Positions 9,458 to 56,248 of a stretch of DNA of 64,000 nt are shown piece by piece (positions within the stretch are counted from its first letter, which is position 1; each line of letters opens with the position of its first letter). The stretch comes from an uncultured virus (IMG/VR IMGVR_UViG_3300020583_000016) (Duplodnaviria; Heunggongvirae; Uroviricota; Caudoviricetes). The stretch lies in IMG/VR virus record IMGVR_UViG_3300020583_000016; one strand, 5' to 3'. Below the pieces are notes generated by a model. The model searched no databases. It saw nothing but the letters and a program-made list of their open reading frames with translations, and was not told the DNA's origin. Position numbers and translations under genes: made by a program.

Positions 9458-9473
9458 AAGGTTGTTCCTTTTT

Positions 9474-11032: not shown

Positions 11033-11560
11033 TCATTCCCATAACCAAAGAAACGCAATCAAACCGATCACACCGAGCACCGCCAGAGTCGAGATCCCCG
11101 TTGTGGTCGCGTCGACGGTACTGCTGTCAATTGACGAAGGATCCACCGTTGACAAATCGGGGCTTACATCGGTTGCAGGACTCGACCCTGAAAGCTGTGC
11201 GAGTGTGGTCGACACGTCCACACCGAGCGCGCTCGCGACGTAACCGGCATAGGTGTAAGCGTTGCCCTGGCTGTCCGACGTCGGTGCCGATTGCCCTAAG
11301 TACTTGGCGGTGATATCGAGAATCGAGTACCCGGGATAGCTGACAACGTACTTTTGCAGTTGTGTGTAAAGGGCCTGAAAGCCTGTACCTGGATCGGGGA
11401 AGATGGCGAACCCGCCGGAGTCGGCGCCGATCGCGCCGGGCTGTCCTGCAAACTTCAGATTGCCGGGGTTGTTGTTGCGCTGTGCGCGGTTGCCGGCGGT
11501 ATTGAATCCTTCAAACTGCGCGATCGCTTGCGCCCAAGTCGAGATGAAATCGAAGTTCAT
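11033..11560 (-). CDS. Membrane-anchored lysozyme-like (NNPGN) protein, probable virion entry muramidase
   Basis: AIAQFEG...RNNNPGNLK...FAIF; Ser/Thr/Asp linker; C-terminal TM. Confidence 0.65.
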   Translation of the reverse strand: MNFDFISTWAQAIAQFEGFNTAGNRAQRNNNPGNLKFAGQPGAIGADSGGFAIFPDPGTGFQALYTQLQKYVVSYPGYSILDITAKYLGQSAPTSDSQGNAYTYAGYVASALGVDVSTTLAQLSGSSPATDVSPDLSTVDPSSIDSSTVDATTTGISTLAVLGVIGLIAFLWLWE

Positions 11561-12496: not shown

Positions 12497-13651
12497 TCAT
12501 GGGGATTGAACAAAAGTCACGATGCCGGCCGCGGATCCGCCGGCGCCGGTGGTCGTCAGACATAAAGCGTTTCCTGTCGGTACTTTCATCACATAGCCCA
12601 CACCGACCGAATAGCTGATCGGTTGACTCGCGGTAACTCCCATTGCGCCGGTGAGGTTCGTCGTTCCCGTGCCGCAATTCGTTCCCGTCCCGTACACCCA
12701 CTGCAACGTGCCTGCGGTTGCGATCTGGGACATTTGGTAGCCGCACACATAGATCGAATCGATGGTGATGGCTGCGATCTGCTGTGTGGTCGACGCGGCC
12801 GCGGCAACAATCGGTACACTCTGCTTCGGCAACGATCCGGTTTGGCAAGGATCGTTTGCGGCGTGGTTCGATAGTCCTGGCGTGGCAAAGACATACTCAC
12901 CGGTGAACGTGTTCGCACTGCCACCGGGCGAAGTGAAGGCAACCGTCGCGAAAGGACACGCGGTATCGGGAACCTGAAATGCCTGGCCGGTTGCGCTGTT
13001 AGGCAACGTGATATTGAGCGGAATCGTTCCGGCTGTTGAGAACGTGTTGCCGAACCCGGTCACCGTCGAGCAAGTGATGGTGAGAGTTCCGCCGGCAACC
13101 GCGCTTGCGTATTTAAAAAAGTAGGTGCCTGCGCTTGAACCGAACGGAGTCTGCAGAGTGTCGGTCTGGTTCACCGTCGCATCGGCGCCGTTGAATTCCA
13201 CCTTATCGATCTGGCCGGCAAGATACGATCCGTTGTCTTCGTTGAACGTAGCCCATGCACCGCTATAAGACAGTGTGAAGGTTGCCGTGTTCGGGGAACA
13301 CGTGACAACGATTTGCGCCTTGGGATAGTAGCCGGTTCCCTTCAGAGTTCCGGAAGTGAAGAGATTACCGGCGCCCGAGGGCTCGAGTACGTCTGAGATC
13401 TGCACCACGTTGCCCGAGCGATCGATGCCATTGATCACCGCTTGAAACTTGGTCGAGCCGGTGACCGCGGTAAAACTCGCGTAGTGCTGCGTCTGTCCTA
13501 GATTCTGAATCGCGAAAGTCTGCGCGGATCCGGTACATGTGGCGTTGGTTGCAAGCGTCTGCTGTTCGGTTTGGGGCGCAACGAAGCCGATGAACTGCGC
13601 GTGCGTGACGCTCGCGGCGAACAGAATCAGACTGAGGAAAATCTTTCGCAT
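12497..13651 (-). CDS. Beta-rich exported structural protein with signal peptide
   Basis: MRKIFLSLILFAASVTHA|QF; Thr/Gly/Cys-rich; homologue 46637..47800. Confidence 0.75.
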   Translation of the reverse strand: MRKIFLSLILFAASVTHAQFIGFVAPQTEQQTLATNATCTGSAQTFAIQNLGQTQHYASFTAVTGSTKFQAVINGIDRSGNVVQISDVLEPSGAGNLFTSGTLKGTGYYPKAQIVVTCSPNTATFTLSYSGAWATFNEDNGSYLAGQIDKVEFNGADATVNQTDTLQTPFGSSAGTYFFKYASAVAGGTLTITCSTVTGFGNTFSTAGTIPLNITLPNSATGQAFQVPDTACPFATVAFTSPGGSANTFTGEYVFATPGLSNHAANDPCQTGSLPKQSVPIVAAAASTTQQIAAITIDSIYVCGYQMSQIATAGTLQWVYGTGTNCGTGTTNLTGAMGVTASQPISYSVGVGYVMKVPTGNALCLTTTGAGGSAAGIVTFVQSP

Positions 13652-13661
13652 GCTCCCGTGC

Positions 13662-14228
13662 CTAAATGAAAATGTTCTCGTCTTCGAGTTCGCGCGGATA
13701 GAAGTAACCGCACAACCGCGCGCCGGCGAGTTGCCCGGCGGGTGTGATTCCACCACTCGGACCGGCCGGGTTATTGAAAATCGTGACCGCAATGATCTGG
13801 TTTTCAAAGATGCGGAATCCGGAAATTCCTACCGGTTGTGCCGGTGAACCGAGCGACGCCGGAATTGCCTGATAGCTGTTGGCACCTGGCGGAGTTCCCT
13901 GGTCGACCAAGATTCTCCACAGCACGTCTCCGCTGCCTTCGGTCCATCCACCACCTACGAAGTTGCAGGCAACTTTGTTGATGATTCCGTTGCGACCGGC
14001 AGGAACCGGAAAGGTGAGGATGGTTGCTTCCGCTCCGATCGCGGGCAGTGTCGCGTAAGCGATCTGATCGATGTTTTCCCAATTGATTGGCGGATAAATC
14101 CACAATGGCAGTCCGTCGCTCGCGCCCGCGGCCGGCTGCGGATAGGGATTGGCGAAATCGTGGATGCGATCGGGTTCCCCGAGTCCCTGAAGGCCAAACC
14201 GTCGTTTATAGGCTCTGCGCGTCGTCAT
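13662..14228 (-). CDS. Predicted single-jelly-roll-like structural protein (minor capsid/penton candidate)
   Basis: Beta-strand pattern ILTFPVP...WRILVD...ARLCGYFYP; homologue 47806..48321. Confidence 0.5.
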   Translation of the reverse strand: MTTRRAYKRRFGLQGLGEPDRIHDFANPYPQPAAGASDGLPLWIYPPINWENIDQIAYATLPAIGAEATILTFPVPAGRNGIINKVACNFVGGGWTEGSGDVLWRILVDQGTPPGANSYQAIPASLGSPAQPVGISGFRIFENQIIAVTIFNNPAGPSGGITPAGQLAGARLCGYFYPRELEDENIFI

Positions 14229-14771
14229 CTATCCGCCGTAGTTAGAAACCACACCACCGGGGTAATCGGGTTGTCCTGCAACCGGTTGATTGAAGCGCAA
14301 CACGACACCGTAGAAAACCACTTGAATGTTGTTGGTCGCGTTTTCCATGTTTTGTGCGACCACAAGAATCTGTGAATCGGGTTGATCGAACGGGTACGGT
14401 TCGCGGAGAAACATCGGGGCTTTCGCACCGCCGGCAAGATTCGCCAGCAGTACTCCGCGATCGGCGAAGCGTTGCTCTTTCACCGTGTCATAGAACTGCG
14501 CGCGGAAACCTCCGAGCGCGGTATTCACCGAGGCCGATGCGGTGATTGCGAGCAGTGTGAAATCTCGCTGCAGGTTGATGCGCACGCGGTCGCTACCGCG
14601 GGAACCGAGTACGAAGGTTGCACACTCCCACATGGGCGCGTGGTCAACAAGTTCGCCGATTGGGGGATGTTTTTCCCCCAACCGGTAGACTTGCATCTGC
14701 GGGCGTCCCAATGGCAGCATTCGCGCCAGCGGATGAGTCGGTGTTTGTGCTAACGAGTACGGATGTTGCAT
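14229..14771 (-). CDS. Predicted single-jelly-roll-like structural protein
   Basis: RINLQRDF...FLREPY...NNIQVVFYG aligns by eye with the upstream 157 aa protein. Confidence 0.5.
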   Translation of the reverse strand: MQHPYSLAQTPTHPLARMLPLGRPQMQVYRLGEKHPPIGELVDHAPMWECATFVLGSRGSDRVRINLQRDFTLLAITASASVNTALGGFRAQFYDTVKEQRFADRGVLLANLAGGAKAPMFLREPYPFDQPDSQILVVAQNMENATNNIQVVFYGVVLRFNQPVAGQPDYPGGVVSNYGG

Positions 14772-14780
14772 TTCGCTCTC

Positions 14781-15254
14781 TTAGCTCCCTACCCGTGGCC
14801 GTGGCCACAACTTGTATCCAGAAAGCACGATCTGGACCGTGTTGGTTGACCCACTCGTGTCGGTGAAGAGGAACGAATAGGAACGATTGGCCGGCAGGAT
14901 GTAAGGCACCGCGAGCGGGAATGCTGCGGTTGCTAGTGCTGTGCCCGCCCAATTGTCGATGTTGATTCCGTTGAAGCTGGTCGAACCTGCGACGGCGCTG
15001 GCAGTCGTACCAATGAAGGCGCGGCCGGTTCCGGCTTCGGTCATGAGCACTTTCAAAAGGTTTGACGTGCGCGAGGCTTTCACCCACCACCATTCAAAAT
15101 CGGCATCGGAAAGAATCTGCACGCTGAACGGCTGTTGCACCGCGCTCGCCGTCACGGTGGCATCGAGAACGTATTCAAAAAACTGCCGTTCAAACTGATC
15201 GTCCGCCGGCTGCGGGTTCATGTGCTGAGAAGCTGGCATTGCTTGTGTCGACAA
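14781..15254 (-). CDS. Predicted single-jelly-roll-like capsid protein
   Basis: QILSDADF...FPLAVPYILP...NTVQIVLSGYKL; AAAGGAGG RBS. Confidence 0.55.
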   Translation of the reverse strand: MSTQAMPASQHMNPQPADDQFERQFFEYVLDATVTASAVQQPFSVQILSDADFEWWWVKASRTSNLLKVLMTEAGTGRAFIGTTASAVAGSTSFNGINIDNWAGTALATAAFPLAVPYILPANRSYSFLFTDTSGSTNTVQIVLSGYKLWPRPRVGS

Positions 15255-15312
15255 GTGGCACCCTCCTTTCTTCCCGCCGTTTTTAAGACGAGAGAATCGA
15301 TTGGAGTCCCGA

Positions 15313-15361
15313 GCGGGCTCGCCGCTCGAGCTCCCGCAAGATGGTTCTGCGGCGAGCCCGC
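15313..15361 (-). other. Intergenic stem-loop downstream of the putative major capsid gene
   Basis: Perfect 13-bp inverted repeat GCGGGCTCGCCGC / GCGGCGAGCCCGC. Confidence 0.7.
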
Positions 15362-15368
15362 GTCGTTA

Positions 15369-16139
15369 TTACAGAATCGCGCGAGCGAGAACACCCTCGA
15401 GGTACACGTGCGCGTTGATGCCGGTACCGACAAAGATGGTCGCAGGCGATGCCGCCAACGTCGTGAACGCGCTCGAGCCGGTGATGGTGGGATCGAGCAC
15501 AACCGTAAAATTCTGGTTCTGTTCGATCACAACCCCCATGAGCGGTTCCATCGGGTCGAGCCCGGGAATCTGCGGCATGGGATCGGTGATCGTGGCAACG
15601 TTCTGCGCTGAAGGCCAACCGTTCGCACCGCTCGACCCGAGAGTCGCGGCTGTGGGACTGACACCGTTCCAGAAACCGCCGGCGCCCGCCGGACACTTCG
15701 AACCGAGTGCGGTCCAATAGTCCTTTCCGGACACAAAGAACTGCACTAGGGTTTGCCCGATGAAGGAATTCAAGTCCTGCGGTCCAACATCGGAACGAAG
15801 TACCAGCGCTACCGCTTTCACGAGATGCTTTTTCGGTGCATCCAATTGCCCGGCTTGCACGAGGTTGGTGTGATAGACCGTCTTCGTGAAGGCCGATCCG
15901 CCCGAAGGCGTATAGGATGTGCCGATTGGCAGTGCGAACAAGTTCTGCTTCGTGACCGCGGTCGCAACCGCAACACCGTAGAAGTCGTAAATCGGCTGCA
16001 CGATGTATTCGAGCTGACCGGCCACGATCGGGTTTTTCCGAAGCATCTTGAGTTTCGGCCGCCCGACTTCGATTTCCTGGATCTGCTCGAGGTGCGCGAA
16101 GCGTGACTTGTAGCGTGGGATAAAATTCGTTTTGACCAT
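15369..16139 (-). CDS. Probable major capsid protein (jelly-roll-like, not HK97)
   Basis: Strong RBS (AAAGGAGG), high conservation with copy 2, beta-rich, TNLVQAGQLD and terminal VYLEGVLAR strand, basic N-arm ending RKNP. Confidence 0.6.
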   Translation of the reverse strand: MVKTNFIPRYKSRFAHLEQIQEIEVGRPKLKMLRKNPIVAGQLEYIVQPIYDFYGVAVATAVTKQNLFALPIGTSYTPSGGSAFTKTVYHTNLVQAGQLDAPKKHLVKAVALVLRSDVGPQDLNSFIGQTLVQFFVSGKDYWTALGSKCPAGAGGFWNGVSPTAATLGSSGANGWPSAQNVATITDPMPQIPGLDPMEPLMGVVIEQNQNFTVVLDPTITGSSAFTTLAASPATIFVGTGINAHVYLEGVLARAIL

Positions 16140-16226
16140 TCTGTTTCGCCTCCTTTCTGGTCAGAATCGATGGCGACTAAGCGGGTGGACTAGATCAACT
16201 CTTCCGGAGAAAACTAGTCCACCTAC

Positions 16227-16856
16227 CTAGTAGTTGCCCGCGTACCGCGAGCGAAAGCGGTGAAAGCCGAGCCCTTTCAGGCTTGCGGCTGCTGCTGCGG
16301 GGTGTACACCGGCAGGTAATGCCATAGCCGGCGCTCCACCTGGCCCGGGGAAAAAGATTGACCCGGCGCCGCGGTTCCACGCCATTCCCGGTGCTGCTGC
16401 ACGCAAGTACTGATCGGAAGAAGTCGGAATGCTGAACCAAGACGGCTGATACAGACCGAGGCCGATCGATTGCGCGACGCCCAATTGATGCAGCGCTTTG
16501 ATAATCGTGGCCGTCAATCCGCCCTTGAGCAGTTCTTCGCCGGCTTTTGCGGAAAGCATCTTCCCGCCAAAACCGAGCGCTACCGCTGCCCCGCCTGTCG
16601 CTGCTACTCCCGCCCATCCAGTAAGGGTTGAAAGCATTCCGGAAAGGTAGAGCGCAGCGAGTGCGCCGGCTGCGTTATAGCCGGCATCGACCACAACACC
16701 GCTCGAGAGTCCGAACGGATTGCGCCGATAGTGGTGGCGATGGTGCTTTTTCTTGTAGTGTTTCGCCATTACGGTTTGTCTCCTTTCCAACCCGTCCCCC
16801 GTGAAAAAACTTCGCGGGGTGTAACTCGACGGGTTAAAGATGCGAACTTCGGGCAC
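16227..16856 (-). CDS. Basic-N-terminus membrane protein (internal membrane/core candidate)
   Basis: KKKHHRHHYRRNP followed by Gly/Ala-rich hydrophobic helices; alternative start at 16769. Confidence 0.75.
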   Translation of the reverse strand: MPEVRIFNPSSYTPRSFFTGDGLERRQTVMAKHYKKKHHRHHYRRNPFGLSSGVVVDAGYNAAGALAALYLSGMLSTLTGWAGVAATGGAAVALGFGGKMLSAKAGEELLKGGLTATIIKALHQLGVAQSIGLGLYQPSWFSIPTSSDQYLRAAAPGMAWNRGAGSIFFPGPGGAPAMALPAGVHPAAAAASLKGLGFHRFRSRYAGNY

Positions 16857-16860
16857 GGAA

Positions 16861-17070
16861 CTAGTCCTCGACTTCTTCGAGGTCGGCAATGTTCGCCGTG
16901 ATCACCGATTCAACTTCGACCGCGTGGCCGTCTGGTTCCGCGGTGATATCCACAAGATCGGAATCGTCGTGGAATTTCTCGATCGTGCCGGTAAGCTGAT
17001 GCGACCGGTCATGGGTTCCTAAAAACTTCACCCTTTGACCGACCGTGAAATGTTTTTTCGTGTCTGCCAT
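16861..17070 (-). CDS. Small SH3/KOW-like protein
   Basis: FTVGQRVKF...TGTIE; homologue in 50955..51278. Confidence 0.6.
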   Translation of the reverse strand: MADTKKHFTVGQRVKFLGTHDRSHQLTGTIEKFHDDSDLVDITAEPDGHAVEVESVITANIADLEEVED

Positions 17071-17076
17071 TGGTTT

Positions 17077-17757
17077 CTATCCTCCGAACTGAAATTTTCC
17101 GCCGACGAAGTACGCGCGCATGCTGCCGGGGTTGCTGTCATCGATCACGAGTGCCATGTGCGTCGCGTCGCTCGGATCCACACCACAGGAGATTTTTCCG
17201 AATCCTCCCTGTGCGCCTCCGAGCATGACTTGCAGCGTGATGATCGGATGGAGCACTCCGTAAATCTTCCCTTCCCTATCCTTCAACATGTCCCGCACTC
17301 GGTCTCCGACGACGGGGCAACCGGTGAGTAGTTGCGGGATCCGCGGCGCGACTTCGGTCGCGGTCTTTGGCATCCATCGCGGATCGGGAATCTTGGGAAG
17401 CGGTGTCAGACCGAACGGCAACAAGAGATCGTGCCTGTCGGCGGAAATCGCAATCTGTGGCGCGTTCTTATTGGTGAGCCAATCGAGCGTGACCGAAGAC
17501 CACAAAATCAATTGCTCTTTCGAAAAGGGCGCCATGGGTGTGCCGGCGAGTTGCTTCGCTTGCTCCGCGTTCGCATAGCGCGGGCGCGCCTGGCTGAGCC
17601 CTTTCAGATCGCGCTGGCCTTCGAACAAAACCGAAGTGAGCCGGCCGACCACGGTGTAACGGCGATCGCGAATCAATTCGTCCTGAATCTTCATGCGATC
17701 GGCAAGACGAAACGTCGTCTTGCTTCTCATCACTGCCGTTTGTGTTGCTGTCGCCAA
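17077..17757 (-). CDS. Conserved hypothetical protein
   Basis: AAGGAG RBS with TTG start; homologue ends identically (GKFQFGG). Confidence 0.8.
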   Translation of the reverse strand: MATATQTAVMRSKTTFRLADRMKIQDELIRDRRYTVVGRLTSVLFEGQRDLKGLSQARPRYANAEQAKQLAGTPMAPFSKEQLILWSSVTLDWLTNKNAPQIAISADRHDLLLPFGLTPLPKIPDPRWMPKTATEVAPRIPQLLTGCPVVGDRVRDMLKDREGKIYGVLHPIITLQVMLGGAQGGFGKISCGVDPSDATHMALVIDDSNPGSMRAYFVGGKFQFGG

Positions 17758-17874
17758 ATTCTTTCTCCTTAAAACGTTTTCAAAGGGGCCGGTCCCATGG
17801 GAGAGGGCCTGTCCGGCATCTCTGGCGGGACCGCCCCTCTGCTCACCGGAAGCCGGTGCGCGGTTCCGGCAAGG

Positions 17875-19023
17875 TCAATTGACTATCCCTTCCCGTCTCA
17901 CTTCGTACGCTCCACCTTCAAGCAAAAGTCGTTTGTGCCGGCTGTCGAATAACAGCGTCGGCCGTTCTCCCGTCTCTTCCCCGAATTCGTGACGCCATTC
18001 GTCAACGTCGGGTTGCGGGACGTGTTCCTTGCGCTGCTTGTAATCGATGCGCCGGGCTTCCCCCAATTCAAAGACGCCGGCGCCCCGATCGTGCGCACCA
18101 AAACCGGAAAGCGAAGTGGTTAGGTCCTGATCACCGTCGACAAACCAAAGTTGTCGCGCGGAATCGTCAGAAACCAGAATCGGGAAAGGTTTTGCAAATG
18201 TGATCGATTGCACCTGTCCGCCGGCGCGCGGTTTCACGTAGAGCGCGAGCAGTTCACCGAGTTGCGCGTAATCGCCGGCCGGCATGTGCGGCTCGATCGT
18301 CGTTGTCTCCCATTCGACAGGGCGCCCGGTGAAATCTTCACGGATGCCCGCGGCGTCTGGATTCTGCCGGCGGATGGCTTTTTTCTGACGTGATCTCGGT
18401 CGACGGGTCCACGGATGAAACACACCGTTTTCGTAAGTTCCGAGTTCCACGTTCTTGCGTTTCTTTTTCAGCAACCCGGGAAGACTGGTCCCAATACTCG
18501 CGACGTCGAGCAGTGCACCGATGCCGGGATTTTGTCCTGGCGCAATTCCACCTTCGTCGATCCAGTCGTATTTGTGCTTCGAAGCTCGATCGCGTGTCAC
18601 ACGCACCAAGCCGGCAACCCGTTTCTGCTTCTGTGTGCGGATCAAACCTGGCGCCTGATAGCTGACACCCGCGGCGCGCGCGCGCAAAGAACTGAAGCGG
18701 TCGGGGTTCACGGGATTCTGCCGCGGCGTGCGGATCACAATCGTTGCGCCCGGGGGAAGCGAGATTTCGTGTGTGTTGACTTCGCTCGGGTTCGCTCCCA
18801 TCACTAAAAGTTCGTGCGGGTTCTTCTGCGCTTTCTTTTTCCGTTTGATCGGGTTCGTGCGCGGACTCATCACGATGTGCCGATAACCCTTGTTCGTGAG
18901 AGTCGATTTGATCCACGCGCCTTTTGTTTTCTTCTCTTTCGCAACCGCGTCTTTCTTGTCCTTGAATGATCCGTGAAACATGTAGCCATAGCCGGCGCCG
19001 GCGTTTTTCCGTTTGCGGCTCAT
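17875..19023 (-). CDS. Highly basic core/DNA-condensing-like protein with repeated NP motifs and a globular C-terminal domain
   Basis: Lys/Arg-rich N-terminal ~220 aa punctuated by RTNP, QKNP, RQNP and similar; homologue 52031..53194. Confidence 0.75.
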   Translation of the reverse strand: MSRKRKNAGAGYGYMFHGSFKDKKDAVAKEKKTKGAWIKSTLTNKGYRHIVMSPRTNPIKRKKKAQKNPHELLVMGANPSEVNTHEISLPPGATIVIRTPRQNPVNPDRFSSLRARAAGVSYQAPGLIRTQKQKRVAGLVRVTRDRASKHKYDWIDEGGIAPGQNPGIGALLDVASIGTSLPGLLKKKRKNVELGTYENGVFHPWTRRPRSRQKKAIRRQNPDAAGIREDFTGRPVEWETTTIEPHMPAGDYAQLGELLALYVKPRAGGQVQSITFAKPFPILVSDDSARQLWFVDGDQDLTTSLSGFGAHDRGAGVFELGEARRIDYKQRKEHVPQPDVDEWRHEFGEETGERPTLLFDSRHKRLLLEGGAYEVRREGIVN

Positions 19024-19099
19024 AGAAAGTTATCCATCGCGATCGGAACCGCGAGAAATCCGCGAAATCTCCGTGGTGGGACGTGTTGGGGAAATAGGC

Positions 19100-19813
19100 T
19101 CATAGCATTTCCCTTGCGAGCAGAAGTGCTCCAACCCCTCCAACGATCCACGGCAACCACGTGGTCCAGTCGCTACTTGTACTGGTTTGATCTGAAGTTG
19201 GTTGCTGTCCAGATCCAGAGCCGGTATCCGGAATTTCTGGCTGACCGGTCGGTGTGGGTGCTGCATTTCCGGGAACTTGGACGCTGGAGATTGAACTCGC
19301 GAGCGGCATCGATCCAGTCACTTGCCAAGCGGCATTGTCGACAATGGACGCGATATCGGAAGGCGCGTTGTAACCCATCCCGTTTGAAACTTGAATTGTT
19401 AGTTTCACGTTCACGGTATTGTTGAGAAGGAAGCGGTAAGCTGAGGACGAAACAGTCCGGACCGCAAGTCCCTCCCCTGAAAGAATCGAACTCACTTGTC
19501 CGATAATTTGCGTTGCGCCTTGCGTTCCATGCGGTACCCATGTGCCGGTGTAAGTAACAACCGACTGATCTGGAACGATGTCACCGAGAAAACCAAGAAA
19601 TGAAGCGGCCACACCGGCGAGGCCGTGAAGCTTTTGCCCTCCCTGCTGCGTGAATGGTTGCGCCTGTCCCATTCCCCGCAAGCGGTGCGGTCCGAACGGT
19701 CCGCGCGGCATGCTCACACCGCTGAGCCCTGCGGCCGCGGCGAAAGGATTCGTTGTCCCGTAGGGGCGATATCCGGTGCGGTAAAGCGATTTGTCGTAGG
19801 CGACGTGACTCAC
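19100..19813 (-). CDS. C-terminally anchored virion membrane protein
   Basis: LRGMGQ and LHGLAG motifs; terminal WLPWIVGGVGALLLA. Confidence 0.7.
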   Translation of the reverse strand: MSHVAYDKSLYRTGYRPYGTTNPFAAAAGLSGVSMPRGPFGPHRLRGMGQAQPFTQQGGQKLHGLAGVAASFLGFLGDIVPDQSVVTYTGTWVPHGTQGATQIIGQVSSILSGEGLAVRTVSSSAYRFLLNNTVNVKLTIQVSNGMGYNAPSDIASIVDNAAWQVTGSMPLASSISSVQVPGNAAPTPTGQPEIPDTGSGSGQQPTSDQTSTSSDWTTWLPWIVGGVGALLLAREML

Positions 19814-20214
19814 CGGCGTCGTCTCCCTCCTGGCGCGGCAAGTAACAACAGCGCGGCCGCGCCTGCAGCGATCAGCAACCACGATGAACTTCCCGAAAAG
19901 ATCGAACTCAATCCGGTGATCGGTACCGCAACCCGCGGCGCCGGTCCGGGCGCAAGTGTTGGCGGTGTGGTTGTGGCTGGCAGATTTAATTGAAAGGTCG
20001 GACTGCTCGTTGGAGTCGCCGGGGTCGACGTCGGCGCATTCATCGTCGGATAGCCTTGCGCGGCTGCTGCAGTCGGGGAAATCGGTCCGTAGTAGAGGTA
20101 TTGATCACCCGTCGCCGGCGGTGTGGTGTCGATGGCTGTCTGTAAACCGGGATCGTAGATATCGGGGATGTCTTGACCGAGCCCGTAGCGGTACGCGCGC
20201 ACAAGATTTCTCAT
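19810..20214 (-). CDS. Pro/Thr-rich C-terminally anchored protein
   Basis: YGLGQD motif; terminal TM plus RRRR. Confidence 0.7.
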   Translation of the reverse strand: MRNLVRAYRYGLGQDIPDIYDPGLQTAIDTTPPATGDQYLYYGPISPTAAAAQGYPTMNAPTSTPATPTSSPTFQLNLPATTTPPTLAPGPAPRVAVPITGLSSIFSGSSSWLLIAAGAAALLLLAAPGGRRRR

Positions 20215-21098
20215 CGCATCACCAACCAAACCGCGGCACCGATTAATAGCAATGGCATCAAACTGGACCCGCCAACGGTCATTGAACTGAGTGCGCTTGT
20301 CAGTCCGGTGCTCGAACTCGCCGGCGGGGTGAAATCGAGTGTGTAGGCTCCGCGGTTTGAAGTTCCGTAACTCGATCCGGATACTTTCGGGATCTCTGCG
20401 ACATAGGGGCCTTGTGTGCTTCCGGATGCGCCCTGGAGTGCGGCAAGGACTCCGTTTGGCCCAGTAATGCCCGGTTCAAGCTGGTAACACGCGACACAAC
20501 AGCCGGCGCCGATCGAACCGACACACGGTTGCTGCCCGGGATTTTCCACCGGGCAACTCATTCCGTTCGAGCATCCGTTGCGCCCGGGTTGGATCTGCGG
20601 ACCCACCACAGTCCAGTACCCGGGCATTACACCTTGCTCGATCGCGTTCGCTGCATCGGTCGCAGAGATCTGACCGGCTTTGTAGGCTTGCCAAACTTGT
20701 TTCAGGTCGGAATCGAAACCGCTCACCGCGATATTTACCGCGGAGTTTTCGTTTTTCGCTTGCTTCGCTCTCAGTTCATGGCCGGCGAGGAGTCCACCGA
20801 TTAAACCGACCACGAGGCCGACACCGGCACCGATCGGGCCGGCAAAGGAACCCGCGGCCGTCGCGGATGCAATCGCACTCGCACTCGCTGCGGCGATCGG
20901 CGCCGATGCGGCAACGATTGCGCCCGGGGTGGCACCGAGGCCGGCGAGCTCGTGATAACTGAGTTCTCGAAACGGAGTCTTCGGCGCGAGCGTGACTTTG
21001 CTCGGCCGGCGATCGCGCACAATGACCGGGCCACACAGATGCGGAGAAAACTGGTACATCGGGGTTTCTGGCGCGATTACTCGAGGCGCGGCGCTCAC
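20211..21098 (-). CDS. Cys-containing membrane protein with two hydrophobic segments
   Basis: AGPIGAGVGLVVGLIGG; six Cys conserved in copy 2; terminal TM. Confidence 0.75.
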   Translation of the reverse strand: MSAAPRVIAPETPMYQFSPHLCGPVIVRDRRPSKVTLAPKTPFRELSYHELAGLGATPGAIVAASAPIAAASASAIASATAAGSFAGPIGAGVGLVVGLIGGLLAGHELRAKQAKNENSAVNIAVSGFDSDLKQVWQAYKAGQISATDAANAIEQGVMPGYWTVVGPQIQPGRNGCSNGMSCPVENPGQQPCVGSIGAGCCVACYQLEPGITGPNGVLAALQGASGSTQGPYVAEIPKVSGSSYGTSNRGAYTLDFTPPASSSTGLTSALSSMTVGGSSLMPLLLIGAAVWLVMR

Positions 21099-21982
21099 CG
21101 TTTCCCCCTGGTCATCATCACCAACGCAAACGCGGCGGCACCGAGTGCAACCCACTGGTTTGAAATGTTGGGAATGATGGTCGACTCCGATAGCCAATCC
21201 GCGAAGCTTGTTCCCGTCGTTGTGGTTCCCGGTGTGAGCCCTGGGACTATCTGTCCTTGGCTCGGCAAGAAATCTGCGGCGGTCGCGTTCACTGCCGGCG
21301 CCGGCGTGGGCGCGACCGCGGGCGCGGAATACGGTGTCACGTAGATCGGGCCAGGGCTCTGAAACTGCGGGGGCTGTGCGACTACGTTGGTTGCTCCCGA
21401 TCCGCCCGAAGGAATTGTTGCGAGCGGCGGGTACATATTGAAATCGTAGGGATAGAGCGGACGCGGGATGGGCCGCGGCATCGGTACCGGCCGGCGCAGT
21501 GCGATCGAGTTGCCCGGCATGAGTCCACTCGGCGCGGCACCGAGCGCGCGATAGTTTCCTGGCGCTTCTGCGAAGCCGGCGGAAACTCCGTCCTCGGTTC
21601 CGAAAATTACGTTCTGACCGCCGGAAGCATTTGGTCGAGGCCGCATCTCAGACGGCGAGCGGTAGACGTAATCCTCCGAGTGCGTCTGTCCTCCCTCGAA
21701 TGCGGTACCGCCCCACTCTTTTGCCCACGGTCCGCGTGAGCTCCCCTGTCCGGGCAGGATGGAATGTCCCGACGGTCGTTTCTGTGGGCCGTCTGAAATT
21801 TCACTTCCGCCCGCCGGCCATCCGCCTTGGCCGCGGTCCCACGATTGTGTGGAATCCGGGCCGATGAATCCGTGATACTGCCCACCTTCCGGACCGCCGG
21901 GAATTCGCAACCGCCAACCGCTCCACGCAAAATCGGGTGCTGAGCGATAGCCGTGGAATCCTGGCATGCGTACCCGGCTCAT
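21095..21982 (-). CDS. Gly/Pro-rich C-terminally anchored protein
   Basis: Homologue 55193..56248; terminal WVALGAAAFALVMM plus basic tail. Confidence 0.75.
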   Translation of the reverse strand: MSRVRMPGFHGYRSAPDFAWSGWRLRIPGGPEGGQYHGFIGPDSTQSWDRGQGGWPAGGSEISDGPQKRPSGHSILPGQGSSRGPWAKEWGGTAFEGGQTHSEDYVYRSPSEMRPRPNASGGQNVIFGTEDGVSAGFAEAPGNYRALGAAPSGLMPGNSIALRRPVPMPRPIPRPLYPYDFNMYPPLATIPSGGSGATNVVAQPPQFQSPGPIYVTPYSAPAVAPTPAPAVNATAADFLPSQGQIVPGLTPGTTTTGTSFADWLSESTIIPNISNQWVALGAAAFALVMMTRGKR

Positions 21983-22140
21983 GCTTCACCTACTTGGTCG
22001 AAAAAATAGGCGAGTGCGGCAAAGTCATCGACGGGAAGTTGCTCAAGGAAAAACCCGCATTCAAACGCACGCAGGAGCAGGTACTTGATGTGATCGGGCG
22101 GAAGTCCCTTCGTCTCGTGGCCGTAAACCGTCGTGTTCAT
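21979..22140 (-). CDS. Small hypothetical protein
   Basis: Fills the operon gap with ATGA overlaps; positional counterpart 56245..56403. Confidence 0.5.
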   Translation of the reverse strand: MNTTVYGHETKGLPPDHIKYLLLRAFECGFFLEQLPVDDFAALAYFFDQVGEA

Positions 22141-23084
22141 CGGCGCCCCATTGCGAGAAGCACAACCCCGCCGATCAAAAGCCATGGCAACCATGAGCCG
22201 CTCGTCGTGAGTCCCACTTGGCTCGTGTACCCGGGATAGCCGGCTTGTGGTCCCGCGTAACCGGGAGTGAGAGGAGAGGCGAAACTCGAGTACGGTCCGG
22301 TGGCAACAACCGACGTCGGGGTTTGAAACTTGATTGGTTGTCCGGAAGATGCGGCGATGAGGGCAGGTGTTTCTTGAAGTCCAGTCTGTAGGATCGAGCC
22401 CCAATCAATTGAGCCATCGTCCTGCCCGAGTGTTACGACACCGGCGAGGCCTGAGAACTTGGATCTGGATCCGCACCCACAGCGACCGCCACAATGACAA
22501 CCGCTGAGATCTTGATAACTCGAATCCGTCAGACTCCACACCCGTTTCCGGAAATACACCGGCGGTTCGACACCGAACTGCGCACCGTAGCGCGCGGCGT
22601 CCATCGCGTACCACTGTCCGGATCCTGGCGGGTTCTCGGCTTCAAGGTAAACGTGAGAAAACTCGTCCGGTGAGGTCTGGTTTGCGGCGATGGTGGCAAG
22701 ACGTGCGGGAAAACCGAGTGCAATCACCAGCGCGCCCATGAGCATCGCGATGTCGTCGCAATCGCCGGCGCGAATTTTCAATAGATCCTGTGGGGAATAA
22801 AGCTTTTCCTTGGTGACCGGATCCATCGTGTAACGGATGTTGCGCTGTACCCACTGATAAACCGCCTGGAGTTCACCCTGATGATCGAAGGGCGCGACAC
22901 CGCGCACGATCTCGATCGCAAACCGAACAAAGCTCGCATCCGATACCGCCTGGTCGATAAGCTTCCGCATCACCGCGATGGTTTGCTTGGTTCCTCCGGC
23001 GCCGGAGGCAAGGGGTGCGCGATAAGTGAGCCCTGGGTTCGGGGAGACTGCGGCGGAAGATGATCCGATGAAAACGGGATTCAA
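22137..23084 (-). CDS. Transglutaminase-like cysteine protease with C-terminal membrane anchor (candidate maturation protease)
   Basis: WVQRNIRY..D, GDCDD, SHVYLE, AMDA give a Cys-His-Asp triad; terminal TM WLPWLLIGGVVLLAMGRR. Confidence 0.85.
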   Translation of the reverse strand: MNPVFIGSSSAAVSPNPGLTYRAPLASGAGGTKQTIAVMRKLIDQAVSDASFVRFAIEIVRGVAPFDHQGELQAVYQWVQRNIRYTMDPVTKEKLYSPQDLLKIRAGDCDDIAMLMGALVIALGFPARLATIAANQTSPDEFSHVYLEAENPPGSGQWYAMDAARYGAQFGVEPPVYFRKRVWSLTDSSYQDLSGCHCGGRCGCGSRSKFSGLAGVVTLGQDDGSIDWGSILQTGLQETPALIAASSGQPIKFQTPTSVVATGPYSSFASPLTPGYAGPQAGYPGYTSQVGLTTSGSWLPWLLIGGVVLLAMGRR

Positions 23085-26099: not shown

Positions 26100-26473
26100 G
26101 TGAACCGGTCGAAATCTATCGGGATGTGCAGATCGATGAACTGATAGGCGAGTTGCGCGTTTTGCAAGGCGAGCTCTGCGAACTCCGGTGGACTCTCTAC
26201 AACGGTTCGAGGTCGAATGCGGGTGAGCTTAATCATCTAAGTTCGACTGTCGCAAGTTCTGTTTCTGAACTCAATCGAACGATTCGGCAAACGTTCGTGC
26301 CGTGGTATCTGCGTCTGTGGTATGCCCTGCGAGGAATGCCTCAGAGTTTTCAGTTACGAATGGCTGCGAAGCGGGCGAAAGCGCAAGAAGCGATGCGGAA
26401 GAAGCAAGTCATTGAAAATGCACAACGCATGCAAGCCGGAGGATTCCACCGATTCCGGAGTCGCTACCAGTGA
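26096..26473 (+). CDS. Copy 1-specific protein ending GFHRFRSRY
   Basis: ATGA/GTGA-coupled on both sides. Confidence 0.65.
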   Translation: MSEPVEIYRDVQIDELIGELRVLQGELCELRWTLYNGSRSNAGELNHLSSTVASSVSELNRTIRQTFVPWYLRLWYALRGMPQSFQLRMAAKRAKAQEAMRKKQVIENAQRMQAGGFHRFRSRYQ

Positions 26474-32635: not shown

Positions 32636-32818
32636 AAACGGAGATTTTCACTGCGGGCTGTGTATGCATTTAGTAAGTGGAATCGCGGTCCTGAGTGGCT
32701 TTCGCACATTTCCACAAGCGCCTGCTACTGCTGTTGCTTTTGAATTAGGTTTGTTTTTGATGTTGATTTAGATCTTTGGTTCTTAGTTGAGATTTTCGCG
32801 CGCGCGCGTTCTCTTTCT

Positions 32819-47805: not shown

Positions 47806-48321
47806 CTAAGTCCAGATGTTTGAATCTTCGAGTTCGCGCGGGTAGAGATAGCCACACAACCGCGCGCCGGCTAGCTGGCCGGCAACTACGATTCCCCCGT
47901 TCGGGCCGGCGGGGTTGTTAAAGATCGTTACCGAGATCACTTGATTTTCGAAAATGCGAAAGCCGGAAATCTCGGTCGGGTTGGCCGGCGAACCGAGTGA
48001 TGCGGGAATCGCGGCATAACTGTTCGCGGCCGGCGGGGGAGCTCCGTCGACTAGGATCCGCCAGAGAATGTCTCCGGTTCCCTCGGTCCATCCACCACCG
48101 ACGAAGTTATTCGCAACTTTGTTGATCACACCGTTCCGGCCGATCGGGACGGTGAACTTCAGAATCGTTGCCTCTGCGTTGATCGCCGGCAGAGTCACGT
48201 AAGCGATCTGATCGATGTTTTCCCAATTGATTGGCGGATAGATCCACAGAGGCAAGCCCGTTCCCGCCATCTCGGGCGTGGGTGGATACATCCGGCGTAC
48301 GCTGCGGCTGCTTTGTAACAC
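47806..48321 (-). CDS. Predicted jelly-roll-like structural protein
   Basis: Homologue of 13662..14228. Confidence 0.5.
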   Translation of the reverse strand: MLQSSRSVRRMYPPTPEMAGTGLPLWIYPPINWENIDQIAYVTLPAINAEATILKFTVPIGRNGVINKVANNFVGGGWTEGTGDILWRILVDGAPPPAANSYAAIPASLGSPANPTEISGFRIFENQVISVTIFNNPAGPNGGIVVAGQLAGARLCGYLYPRELEDSNIWT

Positions 48322-50307: not shown

Positions 50308-50946
50308 CTAGTAGTTGCCGGCGTAACGGCTGCGGAAACGATGGAACCCCATTCCCGCCATCTTTGCGGCTACGGCTGCCGGATGTACGGCAGTTCCGCC
50401 CGCTGCTGGCAATGCAATCGCTCCACCGGGGCCGGGAAAGAAGATCGATCCCGCTCCGCGGTTAAATGAACCGCCAGGTACGCCCGCTTGTAGGTACTGA
50501 CTGGATGACGTCGGTACCGCGAAATAGGACGGTGCGTACAGTCCAAGTCCGATCGATTGCGCAACACCGAGTTGGTGCAGTGCCTTGATGATGGTTGCCA
50601 CAAGGCCGCCTTTCACGAGTTCTTCACTCGCTTTTGCGCCTCCAACCATCTTGCCGGCAAAGCCCATTGCTACCGCCGCGGCTCCGGTTGCTGCCACTCC
50701 TGCCCATCCCTGTAAACTCGAGATGAGGCCTGAGACATACAGCGAACCGAGAGCACCGGCCGCATTCCATCCCGCATCGACCACAACCCCGCTCGATAGT
50801 CCGAACGGATTGCGTCGACGGCCGCGATGGTGATGCCGCCTTCTGTAGTGTTTCGCCATTTGGGTTGTTCTCCTTTCTTCCCCGGCACCGGCGAAATAGC
50901 TTCGCGGTGTGTAAGAGGATGGATTGAAAATTCGTATCTGAGGCAC
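50308..50946 (-). CDS. Basic-N-terminus membrane protein
   Basis: Homologue of 16227..16856. Confidence 0.75.
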   Translation of the reverse strand: MPQIRIFNPSSYTPRSYFAGAGEERRTTQMAKHYRRRHHHRGRRRNPFGLSSGVVVDAGWNAAGALGSLYVSGLISSLQGWAGVAATGAAAVAMGFAGKMVGGAKASEELVKGGLVATIIKALHQLGVAQSIGLGLYAPSYFAVPTSSSQYLQAGVPGGSFNRGAGSIFFPGPGGAIALPAAGGTAVHPAAVAAKMAGMGFHRFRSRYAGNY

Positions 50947-53194: not shown

Positions 53195-53935
53195 CTAGAA
53201 AAGTCTCTTCAGCAAAGGCACCGCTACCAGAAGTCCAATTCCTGCGATCGCAAGCGTTGTTGCGTTCTCGGAAACCCACGTTGTTAAATCTGGCGCCGCG
53301 GACGGTGATGTCAAACCTGGCAAAGCGAAACCGCCCGGGTTCAACACGCCGGCTGCTTGATAATTTGGAGCGGTCGAGGGGCTCTGAACCTGGGTGATCG
53401 CGTCCGTTTGTGGGAACACTCCGGCAACCGCGTAAACATAGTGGCGAACAATCGAGATCACGTCATTCACGGAAGAAAAACCCATTCCGTTCGTGACTTG
53501 CAAAACCAGTGTTACGGAAAAGGGATTGTTCATTCCGATTGCGTTGGCGATGGTTGCGCCGATGCTCGCACTCGTCGGTGCCTGTAAAACCGTAAGCTGT
53601 CCGTCTCCGTTCAATTGGCTGACTACAGCGTTCACGAGTGATTGCGGATCTTGAACGGTGGTCCAGGTGCCTTTGTAAGTAAGAATTGCGCCTGGCGGAA
53701 TCGAAGCATCTCCAAGAAATCCGAGAACGGCGCCGGCAAGCCCGTGAAGCTTGTAACCACCGGATTCGGTGAACGGTGGATTTTGTCCCATGCCGCGCAA
53801 CCGCCAGGGCGCAAACGGATGACCGGCCGGTGTCGGTTTCACTCCGCTGAGCATGGTTGCTGCGAAAGGATCGGTTTCCCCGTAGGGCCGGTAACCCTGG
53901 CGATAGAGTGAGAGGTCGTAATTGACGTAACTCAA
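53195..53935 (-). CDS. C-terminally anchored membrane protein
   Basis: Homologue of 19100..19813. Confidence 0.7.
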   Translation of the reverse strand: MSYVNYDLSLYRQGYRPYGETDPFAATMLSGVKPTPAGHPFAPWRLRGMGQNPPFTESGGYKLHGLAGAVLGFLGDASIPPGAILTYKGTWTTVQDPQSLVNAVVSQLNGDGQLTVLQAPTSASIGATIANAIGMNNPFSVTLVLQVTNGMGFSSVNDVISIVRHYVYAVAGVFPQTDAITQVQSPSTAPNYQAAGVLNPGGFALPGLTSPSAAPDLTTWVSENATTLAIAGIGLLVAVPLLKRLF

Positions 53936-54342
53936 CGTCGCCTCCCTGATGGTCCGCTGAGTAGGAGCACCGCGGCCGCGGCTGCAGCGAGAAGTAGCCA
54001 CGTGCTCGAGCTCGTACCGGTCAATGGACTAAATAGCGATGACGTCACCGGCACCGCGACGCGCGGCGAAGGGCCGGGAGTCAAACCTTTTGTGAGGCTT
54101 GAAATCGCGGATGGAATCGAACTCGCGATCGCGCTACCGGCCGACGGAATCAGACTGGTCGCACCCTGTGCGGCTTGTGCGGCTGAAACGCTTTCCGCCT
54201 CCGTCAAACCGGGGTCGTTGTACATCGGGAAATCGTTAACACTCGTGTCGAACGTCTGCGGTGTCTGAATGTCGGTGAAGAGCGGACTATCTACAAGATC
54301 ACCGAGGCCGCGGAAACTTCGACTTGAACGAACCACGTTCAT
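53932..54342 (-). CDS. C-terminally anchored protein
   Basis: Homologue of 19810..20214. Confidence 0.7.
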   Translation of the reverse strand: MNVVRSSRSFRGLGDLVDSPLFTDIQTPQTFDTSVNDFPMYNDPGLTEAESVSAAQAAQGATSLIPSAGSAIASSIPSAISSLTKGLTPGPSPRVAVPVTSSLFSPLTGTSSSTWLLLAAAAAAVLLLSGPSGRRR

Positions 54343-55193
54343 CGCATCACCAACCAAACCGCGGCGCCGATCAGAAGCAAAGGCATAAGACTTGAACCGC
54401 CGGTGATCGAACTGAGTGCGCTCGTGAGTCCGCCGCTCGCTCCGGACGGGGAGAAATCGAGGGTGTACGCTCCGCGCGTCGAAGCGCCGTAACTCGAGCC
54501 GAAAACTTGCGGAATCTCGGCAACGTACGGTCCCTGGGACGATTGCGATTGTCCCTGTACTGCGGCAACAATTCCGTTTGGTCCGGTGATGCCTGGCGTG
54601 AGTTGGTAGCAGGCGATGCAGCAACCGGCACCGATCGAACCGACACACGGTTGCTTGCCGGGAGTTTCCACCGGACAACTAGAACCACTCGAGCAACCGT
54701 TTCGCCCGGGCTGAAGTTGCGGTGTAACCACAGTCCAGTAACCCGGCATCACCGTGGCAACTGCTTGCAACACTCCGCTTGCATCGATCTGTCCGGATTT
54801 GAAAGCGGATTGAATCTGGCGTACGTCCGCGTCGAAACCCTGCACCGCGATATTCACCGCGGAGTTTTCGTTTTTCGCTTGCTTGGCGCGGAGCTCGTGA
54901 CCGGCGAGCAGGCCGGCGATGATTCCGACAATCGCACCCACACCGGCACCGATCGGGCCGGCAAAGGAACCCGCTGCGGTTGAAGCTGCGATCGCGCTCG
55001 TGCCTGCGGCTGCGATCGGCGCGGCTGCGCCGACAATTTGCGCCGCGGCGCCGAAGTATCCAAGCTGATAGATCGGGGTGTGTGGCGAGCGGACCGCGTT
55101 GCCAATTTTGTGATGTCTCCGGATCCGGTGACGGTCGAAATGCTGAACTCCCATCGAATGCAGGGGCGTGAGTGGTGCGGAAACGTTCGGCAT
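54339..55193 (-). CDS. Cys-containing membrane protein
   Basis: Homologue of 20211..21098. Confidence 0.75.
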   Translation of the reverse strand: MPNVSAPLTPLHSMGVQHFDRHRIRRHHKIGNAVRSPHTPIYQLGYFGAAAQIVGAAAPIAAAGTSAIAASTAAGSFAGPIGAGVGAIVGIIAGLLAGHELRAKQAKNENSAVNIAVQGFDADVRQIQSAFKSGQIDASGVLQAVATVMPGYWTVVTPQLQPGRNGCSSGSSCPVETPGKQPCVGSIGAGCCIACYQLTPGITGPNGIVAAVQGQSQSSQGPYVAEIPQVFGSSYGASTRGAYTLDFSPSGASGGLTSALSSITGGSSLMPLLLIGAAVWLVMR

Positions 55194-56248
55194 CACTTTT
55201 TCCCCTTCATCATGAGAATCAGGGCGAGTACTCCACCGAGTGCAACCCATTCGTTGTTGAGGCCGGGAATGATGGTCTGCTCGGAAAGCCAAGCGCTAAA
55301 CCCGCTCGTTGCCGGCACTCCGCTCGCTGATGCTGAAGCTTGCGCGAGTGAGACGCACGCGCCGGATCCCAGAGGATCGAGGGTGTAACCGCTCGCACAT
55401 TGCGGCGCGCCGGCCGTCGGCATGCACGAACCGGACGGACCGGAGTTGATGTAACCGGGCGCGCACTGTGGCGGGGGCGAATCGATCAGCGAGTAACCCG
55501 GGGTGATGCCGGGAACAATCTGCCCCTGGCTCGGCATGTAGTCGGCCGGCGATGCTGCAACCGTGGGCGCCGGCGCCGGGCTCGCCGGCGGAATCGTCCA
55601 GGGCACCATGTACTGCGGCGCGGGTGTGGCTGGTGCCGGCTGCAGGACGGTCGAGGTTGCGCCGCTCGATCTCGATGGAATCGTTGTGGGCGGTTGGTAG
55701 TCTGGTCCGAAGTACGGATAGCGCGGCTCAATCGATTCCCCGGGCATCATTCCGTACGGCCGGCGAACTGCGATCGATTGACCGACAGGAATTCCACTCG
55801 GTACCGCTCCGAGTCCTGCATAATTTCCGGGTGCTTCTGCATAACCGGGCGCGTGCTGCGTTTGCTTTCCGCGAACGACGTTGGTTCCGCCGCTCGCGTT
55901 CGGCCGCGGCCGGGTTTCCCCTGGCGAGCGATAGACGTAATCCGAGTGGGTCTGTCCTTCCCTAAACGCGGTTCCGCCCCAATTCTTGTCCCAAGGACCT
56001 TTCGAGGTTCCCTGTTGTGGCAATTGCGAGTGACCACTCGGCCGGATTTGTGGGCCTTCGGAAAGTTCACTTGGTCCGAAGGGCCATCCACCACCACCGG
56101 GCGCCCAAGATCTCAACGAATCAGGTCCGATAAAGCCATGGTATTGACCACCCACCGGGCCGCCGGGTATCGAATGACGCCAACCGCTCCACGCGAAATC
56201 GGGTGAGCTCGAGTAACCGCGGAATCCTGGCATGCGCACCCGGCTCAT
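55193..56248 (-). CDS. Gly/Pro-rich C-terminally anchored protein with extra Cys repeats
   Basis: Homologue of 21095..21982 plus CAPGY...C / CASGY...C insert. Confidence 0.75.
   Translation of the reverse strand: MSRVRMPGFRGYSSSPDFAWSGWRHSIPGGPVGGQYHGFIGPDSLRSWAPGGGGWPFGPSELSEGPQIRPSGHSQLPQQGTSKGPWDKNWGGTAFREGQTHSDYVYRSPGETRPRPNASGGTNVVRGKQTQHAPGYAEAPGNYAGLGAVPSGIPVGQSIAVRRPYGMMPGESIEPRYPYFGPDYQPPTTIPSRSSGATSTVLQPAPATPAPQYMVPWTIPPASPAPAPTVAASPADYMPSQGQIVPGITPGYSLIDSPPPQCAPGYINSGPSGSCMPTAGAPQCASGYTLDPLGSGACVSLAQASASASGVPATSGFSAWLSEQTIIPGLNNEWVALGGVLALILMMKGKK

Follow-up and report, generated by a model that had tools for sequence, protein, structure and literature searches.

The 64,000-nucleotide stretch considered here, from an uncultured virus (IMG/VR record IMGVR_UViG_3300020583_000016) and referred to throughout as the window, carries on its minus strand a long operon of orphan genes, numbered g01 (22137-23084) to g18 (5042-9553), the first of which encodes a transglutaminase-like cysteine enzyme. 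An initial annotation of positions 13662-23084 pointed to a (L/M/F/Y)xG(L/M)G motif recurring across the structural proteins of this operon, and proposed that the enzyme processes them in a maturation scheme like that of adenovirus. Self-comparison shows that the window consists of two diverged collinear copies of one element joined head to tail with an offset of ~33 kb, copy 1 running to about position 32,800 and copy 2 from there to 64,000, and that nucleotide identity between them varies by segment from 66 to 97%. Its relatives are single genomes of 33-37 kb, present as contigs in IMG/VR and in metagenomes from soil or peat. All five relatives taken whole were rated 100% complete, four having direct terminal repeats and one being linear, from which it follows that one unit corresponds to a phage genome of about 33-35 kb; the two copies in the window could reflect either a tandem prophage or the concatenation of two co-occurring strains during assembly. 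The genes that bear on the motif are as follows.

22137..23084, minus strand: g01 copy 1, transglutaminase-like cysteine enzyme of 315 amino acids that opens the operon, with a C-terminal hydrophobic anchor
22440..22457, minus strand: g01 copy 1, linker site 1, FSGLAG, kept as [FLIMV]xG[LM][AGNS]G in homologues
22416..22433, minus strand: g01 copy 1, linker site 2, TLGQDD, directly ahead of a conserved IDW helix
56403..57359, minus strand: g01 copy 2, with LRGLAG (56709-56726) and (Y)GLGQDD (56670-56687)
21095..21982, minus strand: g02 copy 1, tail-anchored, with the relaxed site YRALGA (21536-21553)
55193..56248, minus strand: g02 copy 2, with YAGLGA (55805-55822)
20211..21197, minus strand: g03 copy 1, tail-anchored, with LAGLGA (20931-20948) ahead of an Ala-rich hydrophobic segment; copy 2 has (L)GYFGA
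19810..20229, minus strand: g04 copy 1, tail-anchored, with (RY)GLGQD (20167-20184); net charge +2 upstream and -4 downstream of the site
53932..54678, minus strand: g04 copy 2, with (FR)GLGD (54292-54309)
19100..19882, minus strand: g05 copy 1, tail-anchored, with LRGMGQ (19664-19681), LHGLAG (19613-19630) and LGFLGD (19580-19597)
53195..54001, minus strand: g05 copy 2, with the same three sites, (LR)GMGQ (53777-53794), LHGLAG (53732-53749) and LGFLGD (53708-53725)
16227..16889, minus strand: g09 copy 1, C-terminal tail with LKGLGF (16263-16280) and then a basic-aromatic end; a variant element, not the core motif
50308..50946, minus strand: g09 copy 2, with MAGMGF (50344-50361) in the conserved C-terminal tail
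13662..14228, minus strand: g13 copy 1, soluble virion-module protein whose basic N-terminal leader ends in LQGLGE (14175-14192); net charge +5 upstream and -1 downstream of the site
47806..48321, minus strand: g13 copy 2, with a short leader and a degenerate MAGTG

The product of g01 matches PF01841 (Transglut_core) over residues 70-163, scoring 46.4 bits where the cut-off is 23 (E 5.5e-12), and this domain is present in 120 of 120 g01 homologues among the matches listed. There are 370 homologues at E <= 1e-5, many of them on contigs of 32-36 kb; 120 of these were listed, of which 105 were anchored by pattern and 15 dropped. Cys109 (within GDCDD), His144 and Asp162 are invariant in all nine homologues aligned (alignment A3) and follow one another in the order Cys-His-Asp, which bears out the description of the first operon gene as a transglutaminase-like enzyme with a Cys-His-Asp triad; the fold family and the intact triad are established by these data. 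The gene is present in 27 of the 27 relatives with at least 8.5 kb of flanking sequence upstream of g10. At E <= 0.01 a Pfam scan of g01 returned only Transglut_core, DUF553 and Peptidase_C93 and no adenain domain, in agreement with the suggestion that the enzyme belongs to a family other than that of the adenovirus protease. The nearest solved relative by sequence is 3isr, an uncharacterised 'putative cysteine protease' (E 7.5e-5). A protein of Geoglobus pleomorphic virus 1 also matches g01 (E 9e-6), but in another gene context.

The motif is found within the enzyme itself, in a variable linker immediately before a conserved IDW-containing segment. Among the matches listed, [LM]G[QDE] occurs in the linker of 93 of the 105 anchored homologues and G[LM]G[QDE] in 64. 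In the clade of the window, and not in other clades, the linker also has a Cys-rich stretch, C-x-C-G-G-x-C-G-C, at residues ~196-205 between the catalytic domain and the first motif; this stretch might bind metal or form disulfides. Prediction of a complex between g01 residues 1-200 (A3) and residues 1-45 of the g13 leader gave a score of 0.00 against a mark of 0.32, which speaks neither for nor against binding.

Every string listed in the initial annotation was found in the translated minus-strand genes of both copies. As a single strict pattern the list does not hold together, several of its members departing from (L/M/F/Y)xG(L/M)G so that strict and relaxed forms are mixed; the strict form is matched in four of the 13 proteins of 13662-23084 and in five of their 13 copy 2 counterparts. 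The pattern [LMFYIV]xG[LM]G occurs six times in the structural genes of copy 1, against 1.38 expected from shuffles (p 0.008), and five times in those of copy 2, against 1.39 (p 0.014). One non-structural block has two occurrences against 0.20 expected, both without Asp, Gln or Glu after the motif.

The distribution becomes much sharper when related genomes are considered. There are 28 genomes with both g01 and g13, and removal of seven near-duplicates left 21 that are non-redundant; genes were called by a greedy longest open reading frame rule and the locus survey used stop-to-stop frames, so that some wrong-frame noise is included. Across the g01-to-g13 genes of these 21 genomes, 45 instances of the core G[LM]G[QDE] were counted where shuffles predict 7.3. 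Composition-matched controls counted in the same genomes were flat or depleted: the reversed motif was found four times (7.9 expected), G[IV]G[QDE] once (8.9), G[LM]G[KRH] seven times (8.4) and A[LM]A[QDE] five times (9.1). The enrichment over background that the initial annotation had wished to see checked is present in these relatives. In seven whole genomes the core motif occurs 19 times in the 11,399 amino acids of g01-g05 and g13 but four times in 65,702 amino acids elsewhere, the latter taking in the jelly-roll and giant proteins, which corresponds to densities of 1.67 and 0.06 per 1000 amino acids; the associated Fisher p of 8e-13 is descriptive only, as the genomes are related and the counts non-independent. 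The anticipated difference between structural and non-structural proteins exists for a restricted set, g01-g05 and g13, and the motif is concentrated there rather than being spread across the structural proteins at large, the tail of g09 representing a different element.

Dereplication reduced 99 unique instances of the motif to 69, the logo of which gives a refined motif L-x-G-[LM]-G-[D/Q/E]. Leucine at position -2, which had played no part in the selection, is found in 49% of the 69, 6.7 times background. The residue after G-[LM]-G is Asp in 43%, Gln in 40% and Glu in 15%, and these three residues swap with one another at orthologous sites. The residue that follows the core is often Asp too. 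Mean net charge, determined for the 65 instances with sufficient flanking sequence, is +1.46 over the 20 residues upstream of the motif and -1.60 over the 20 downstream; the upstream side is the more positive in 53 instances and the less positive in eight, with four ties. The codons used span all Gly and Leu synonyms, so that selection has acted on the protein and a DNA-level motif can be ruled out. A C-terminal sorting signal of the sortase or exosortase type, considered on account of the C-terminal helix followed by basic residues, was rejected, since 100-200 residues separate the motif from the helix and N-terminal signal peptides are lacking in these proteins.

The motif and its placement are a matter of plain observation. 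In orthologues that are only 30-60% identical it stays in place in the g01 linker, the g13 leader and the N-terminal parts of g03 and g05 whilst the flanks diverge, which upholds the observation from the two copies that it persists where its surroundings do not, and it recurs at conserved places, among them also the N-terminal part of g04, in proteins that are non-homologous or can barely be aligned. In g05 the three sites lie within the N-terminal ~100 amino acids, the last adjoining a conserved globular domain (23 non-redundant orthologues aligned). The site in g03 is semi-conserved as G/x-L-G-[QAD] among 18 non-redundant orthologues, and in g02 the orthologues of relatives L082 and L049 carry the strict motif elsewhere in the protein. 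The N-terminus of g03 also has a P-[LM]-Y-x-x-G element twice ahead of the motif, and there are conserved Cys clusters in the middle of the protein.

For the leader of g13, 67 orthologues were reduced to 49 that are non-redundant, of which 48 had the anchor used in counting. The strict core is present in the leader of 17 of the 48, against a mean of 0.45 and a maximum of four in 2000 trials with shuffled leaders; a few leaders have the motif twice and four have an L-R-G-G-G variant. Where the motif is missing, the leader is in most cases short or absent altogether. That the motif bounds a basic leader, as had been proposed, holds in so far as the upstream side is the more positive in 53 of the 65 instances, and does not hold for the many g13 orthologues from which the strict motif is missing. 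Upstream of the motif the g13 leader has another conserved element, the basic-aromatic patch R-R-[FW]-x-P, and the unit of patch and motif is tandemly duplicated in some leaders (seen among L002, L007, L010 and L048). Most of the 62 non-redundant g09 orthologues listed end in the strongly conserved tail G-[LM]-G-[FY]-H-R-F-R-S-R-Y-A-G-N-Y. In one clade (L002, L007, L010, L049, L089 and L091) the g01 linker has R-F-[RK]-S-H beside S-G-[LM]-G, resembling the g09 tail.

In a comparison of g01 with 50,697 phage records of GenBank, the protein that matched best was gp34 of Salisaeta icosahedral phage 1, abbreviated here to SSIP-1, with 30% identity over residues 33-162 (E 7e-12), and a hidden Markov model of the g01 family matches gp34 at E 1.1e-23; the link between the two proteins is among the things shown here. 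This phage, which is in culture, is described as having a circular genome of 44 kb, a membrane inside a T=49 capsid, and major capsid proteins of two types that are possibly single jelly rolls (PMC6356626, PMC6260650). Its gp34 is annotated in the record as a virion structural protein and has the same build as g01, with a Cys-His-Asp domain, a linker containing x-G-M-G-E, the IDW segment and a C-terminal hydrophobic anchor; small tail-anchored proteins follow it, one with the motif at residue 17. There are only two strict cores in the SSIP-1 proteome (57 proteins, 13,103 amino acids), A-R-G-M-G-E in the gp34 linker and A-Q-G-M-G-D at residue 17 of ORF36, the small tail-anchored protein encoded two genes downstream of gp34. 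Both are located exactly where the soil family would predict, and it is the placement alone that is telling. They have Ala at position -2 whereas the soil family has Leu. A relaxed G[LM]G is present at residues 18-34 of gp37, ORF52 and gp53. The product of g11 weakly matches the SSIP-1 structural protein gp47 (E 1.6e-5 against the 57 proteins), and the 16 other family profiles of the window gave nothing below E 0.01 against SSIP-1 proteins. After its membrane-protein block SSIP-1 encodes a giant structural protein too, gp43 (2319 amino acids), comparable with g18; the phage differs in being halophilic, in its genome of 44 kb and in having, in the structural block, gp40 with a Walker A motif, a motif not found in any plausible gene of the window. 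A search of IMG/VR with gp34 recovered only SSIP-1 itself.

The type of virion to which these proteins would belong is suggested by g10 and by the membrane anchors.

15369..16139, minus strand: g10, without the motif; AlphaFold2 model from a 62-row alignment

The product of g10 is the best conserved protein of the element, with 211 representative relatives at E <= 0.001 in a library of 1.84 billion proteins. The AlphaFold2 model is a beta-sandwich with a pLDDT of 84.1 and supersedes an earlier model from an 11-row alignment (pLDDT 32.7). Compared with 48,161 solved chains, it aligns best with capsid proteins of membrane-containing single-jelly-roll viruses, namely SPV1 (Z 7.4), HHIV-2 (6.3), P23-77 VP17 (6.1), HCIV-1 (5.9) and P23-77 VP16 (5.0), HHIV-2 and HCIV-1 belonging to the Sphaerolipoviridae and P23-77 being a Thermus phage. 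All these values are below 8, a range that the tool rates as common among unrelated beta-sandwiches, and a Foldseek search with the model returned nothing at E <= 0.001; for these reasons the assignment of g10 as a single jelly roll like the capsid proteins of such viruses is graded as probable, not proven. In sequence, g10 resembles no solved chain, which sets it apart from this group: its profile with alignment A1 gave no match among solved-structure sequences and that with A2 a single chance match (E 0.67). There was no match to GenBank phages and one weak match to genome contigs (36% over 61 residues, E 8e-4), and IMG/VR searches for distant homologues with P0028 and P0011 gave no relatives. 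The products of g01-g05 have hydrophobic C-terminal helices without N-terminal signal peptides, an architecture that looks like that of tail-anchored proteins of an internal viral membrane, and the presence of many such proteins is what an internal membrane, as in the SPV1, Sphaerolipoviridae and P23-77 group, would lead one to expect. The soil phage family of the window thus probably has an internal membrane and jelly-roll capsid proteins. A further difference from that group is that a packaging ATPase was not found in the window. Neither a Walker A ATPase nor a terminase or portal was detected in either copy by Pfam, PHROG and pattern scans; [AG]xxxxGK[ST] occurs in no plausible gene of the window, its three matches lying in short open reading frames that overlap other genes, and there was no Pfam ATPase among the 53 window proteins scanned.

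Elsewhere in the element, the plus strand encodes among others a RusA-like protein, a D12 methyltransferase and a small serine recombinase, together with domains of unknown function. Each genome copy has two domains that resemble lysozymes or transglycosylases, one in g16 (11033-11560, minus strand) inside the structural operon and the other at 26470-26892 (plus strand) outside it, with matches to PHROG 873 / 2276 at E 6.6e-14 and 1.4e-11. The only protease gene of the element besides g01 encodes an M48-type zinc peptidase (26960-27667, minus strand, copy 1; Pfam E 4.8e-15). It had no match in any of the five complete related genomes and is therefore an accessory gene, which rules it out as the protease acting on the motif. 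Within the operon, g14 (12497-13807) lacks the core motif and appears to have an internal signal-peptide-like start, M-R-K-I-F-L-S-L-I-L-F-A-A-S-V-T-H-A-Q, being the sole operon protein with an exported look. The operon closes with g18 (5042-9553; copy 2 counterpart at 39519-43730), a giant Gly-rich protein of 1503 and 1403 amino acids in the two copies, which are only 37% identical.

The motif invites comparison with the sites of adenain, the adenovirus protease. The consensus sites of adenain are (M/I/L)XGX-G and (M/I/L)XGG-X, and the enzyme is packaged in virions, according to the account in PMC7998265. As the initial annotation had it, the form of the site is adenovirus-like: L-x-G-[LM]-G-[DQE] fits (M/I/L)XGX-G, in that, were the chain cut behind the second hydrophobic residue, Leu/Met would occupy P4 and Gly both P2 and P1', and sites of this form are present in g01, g03, g04, g05 and g13. 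In both systems several virion precursors carry the site, some of them repeatedly, both virus groups have jelly-roll capsids, and the enzyme is packaged, in the case of SSIP-1 gp34 by annotation. The differences are that the g01 family is Transglut_core, has the order Cys-His-Asp and is membrane-anchored, that the motif continues with one more position, acidic or Gln, and that cleavage is here a prediction; the resemblance would be convergent. The premise that transglutaminase-like folds can act as cysteine proteases is backed by LapG, for which PMC3032545 describes proven endopeptidase activity, with cleavage of a membrane-proximal substrate near its N-terminus between Ala108 and Ala109. LapG and the BTLCP family (Peptidase_C93) share the fold superfamily and the Cys-His-Asp triad with g01, but LapG is periplasmic, is regulated by c-di-GMP signalling and cuts Ala-Ala in an adhesin rather than virion proteins. 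Literature searches turned up no phage or jelly-roll virus with a maturation protease of the transglutaminase-like kind, nor any maturation protease for SPV1, the Sphaerolipoviridae or the P23-77 group. In the account of PMC4405056, what bacterial tectiviruses have in common with eukaryotic jelly-roll viruses is capsid proteins, ATPase and polymerase, and the maturation protease common to polintons, virophages, adenoviruses and giant viruses is not among the four genes shared with tectiviruses.

The reading that we favour, to which we would give slightly less than an even chance, is that g01 acts as a virion-maturation protease which recognises and cuts L-x-G-[L/M]-G-[D/Q/E]; cleavage at the motif, the part of g01 in it and the position of the scissile bond are what we infer. 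The structural operon would then open with a tail-anchored transglutaminase-fold cysteine protease. This enzyme and the tail-anchored products of g02-g05 would lie on the same face of the same membrane, and g01 would therefore be able to trim their basic N-terminal segments. It would also remove the basic N-terminal leader of the soluble g13 and cut its own linker, so that the catalytic domain is freed from its anchor. Such a scheme accounts for the conserved triad, for an enzyme and its substrates on one membrane face, for the junction-like placement of the motif and for the charge polarity around it, as well as for leaders that can be dispensed with, for the presence of the motif in the g01 linker and for the recurrence in SSIP-1. 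The interchange of Gln, Asp and Glu at orthologous sites fits a specificity pocket rather than a Gln donor. A more far-reaching proposal, which we regard as doubtful, is that bacterial membrane-containing jelly-roll viruses, comprising the soil lineage and SSIP-1, possess a complete adenovirus-convergent maturation system built on a tail-anchored transglutaminase-fold protease that cuts L-x-G-L|G-(D/Q/E), strips basic leaders from membrane and vertex proteins and releases itself. This system may also cut g09 behind G-[LM]-G and so free its short basic C-terminal peptide, for which release of the C-terminal peptide of adenovirus pVI is the proposed analogue. On this proposal, no earlier maturation protease with its cleavage code would be known from a non-tailed virus of prokaryotes.

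A number of points weigh against cleavage by g01. With 18.3 bits against a cut-off of 27, g01 is not a member of Peptidase_C93, the LapG family, and Transglut_core proteins are mostly uncharacterised, the superfamily also including enzymes that act as amidases, deamidases or cross-linkers. The core G[LM]G[QDE] was chosen after the alignments had been viewed and was counted on the same related genomes, so that the counts are partly circular and the p-values overstate independence. Within the window the enrichment is modest and the motif was defined post hoc, and in SSIP-1 there is no overall enrichment, the two cores comparing with 1.29 expected (p 0.37). Single sites are lost in individual genomes, including one copy in the window for both g03 and g13, and among the 48 g13 orthologues the strict form is limited to the 17 already noted and the relaxed form to 27; processing at any single site must therefore be dispensable.

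The main and serious rival to cleavage is that the motif is an uncleaved docking or targeting signal, bound by the inner face of the shell, by a vertex protein or by g01, which recruits the membrane proteins and g13 to the site of assembly. Encapsulin cargo-loading peptides work in a comparable manner. The placement in flexible terminal or linker segments, sometimes in tandem and in several unrelated proteins of one module, suits docking equally well, and the loss of single sites from proteins that are themselves retained is typical of short linear motifs. However, docking leaves the invariant triad of g01 without a role, and explains neither the basic-to-acidic junction directly before conserved domains nor the leaderless g13 variants that start downstream of the site. 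We consider it unlikely on balance.

It may instead be the case that the motif is cleaved by a host or other protease and that g01 is employed otherwise, for example as a virion-borne cell-wall peptidase for entry. Papain-like and transglutaminase-like folds do include peptidoglycan peptidases, PRD1 P7 is a membrane-anchored lytic enzyme that could serve as an analogue, and the annotation of gp34 as structural would suit an entry enzyme too. This is improbable, given that the element already encodes two lysozyme-like proteins, that the M48 peptidase is not conserved and that the presence of the motif in the linkers of g01 and gp34 ties it to g01. Very improbable is a further alternative in which g01 acts on the Gln after G-L-G, either as a transglutaminase that cross-links virion proteins or as a Gln-to-Glu deamidase in maturation. 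The frequency of Gln at this position, the cross-linking enzymes after which the fold family is named and the compatibility of Gln, Glu and Asp interchange with deamidation to an acidic residue would be in its favour. Asp and Glu at the same orthologous sites are unable to be acyl donors, so that a cross-link cannot be the conserved function, and the greater frequency of Asp than of Glu speaks against simple mimicry of deamidated Gln. That the motif has no function, being a by-product of Gly/Leu-rich low-complexity linkers and shared ancestry, is scarcely credible: the proteins do contain 9-14% Gly, the window statistics are weak and post hoc, and the non-structural block has its own excess, but the controls matched for composition, the unselected Leu at -2, the charge polarity, the codon diversity and the placement in SSIP-1 go beyond composition alone.

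Proteolytic maturation of virions is known from tailed phages, herpesviruses and eukaryotic jelly-roll viruses such as adenoviruses, polintons, virophages and giant viruses. If g01 does cleave at L-x-G-[LM]-G-[D/Q/E], this known process would be found in an unexpected group of viruses. A function would be assigned to a conserved virion protein of SSIP-1, and since both this phage and its host, Salisaeta sp. SP9-1, are cultured the idea is directly testable. For the large family of uncultured soil phages there would be a sequence rule by which mature virion proteins can be predicted, and it would follow that the maturation logic exemplified by adenain arose independently in prokaryotes, with a different enzyme fold.

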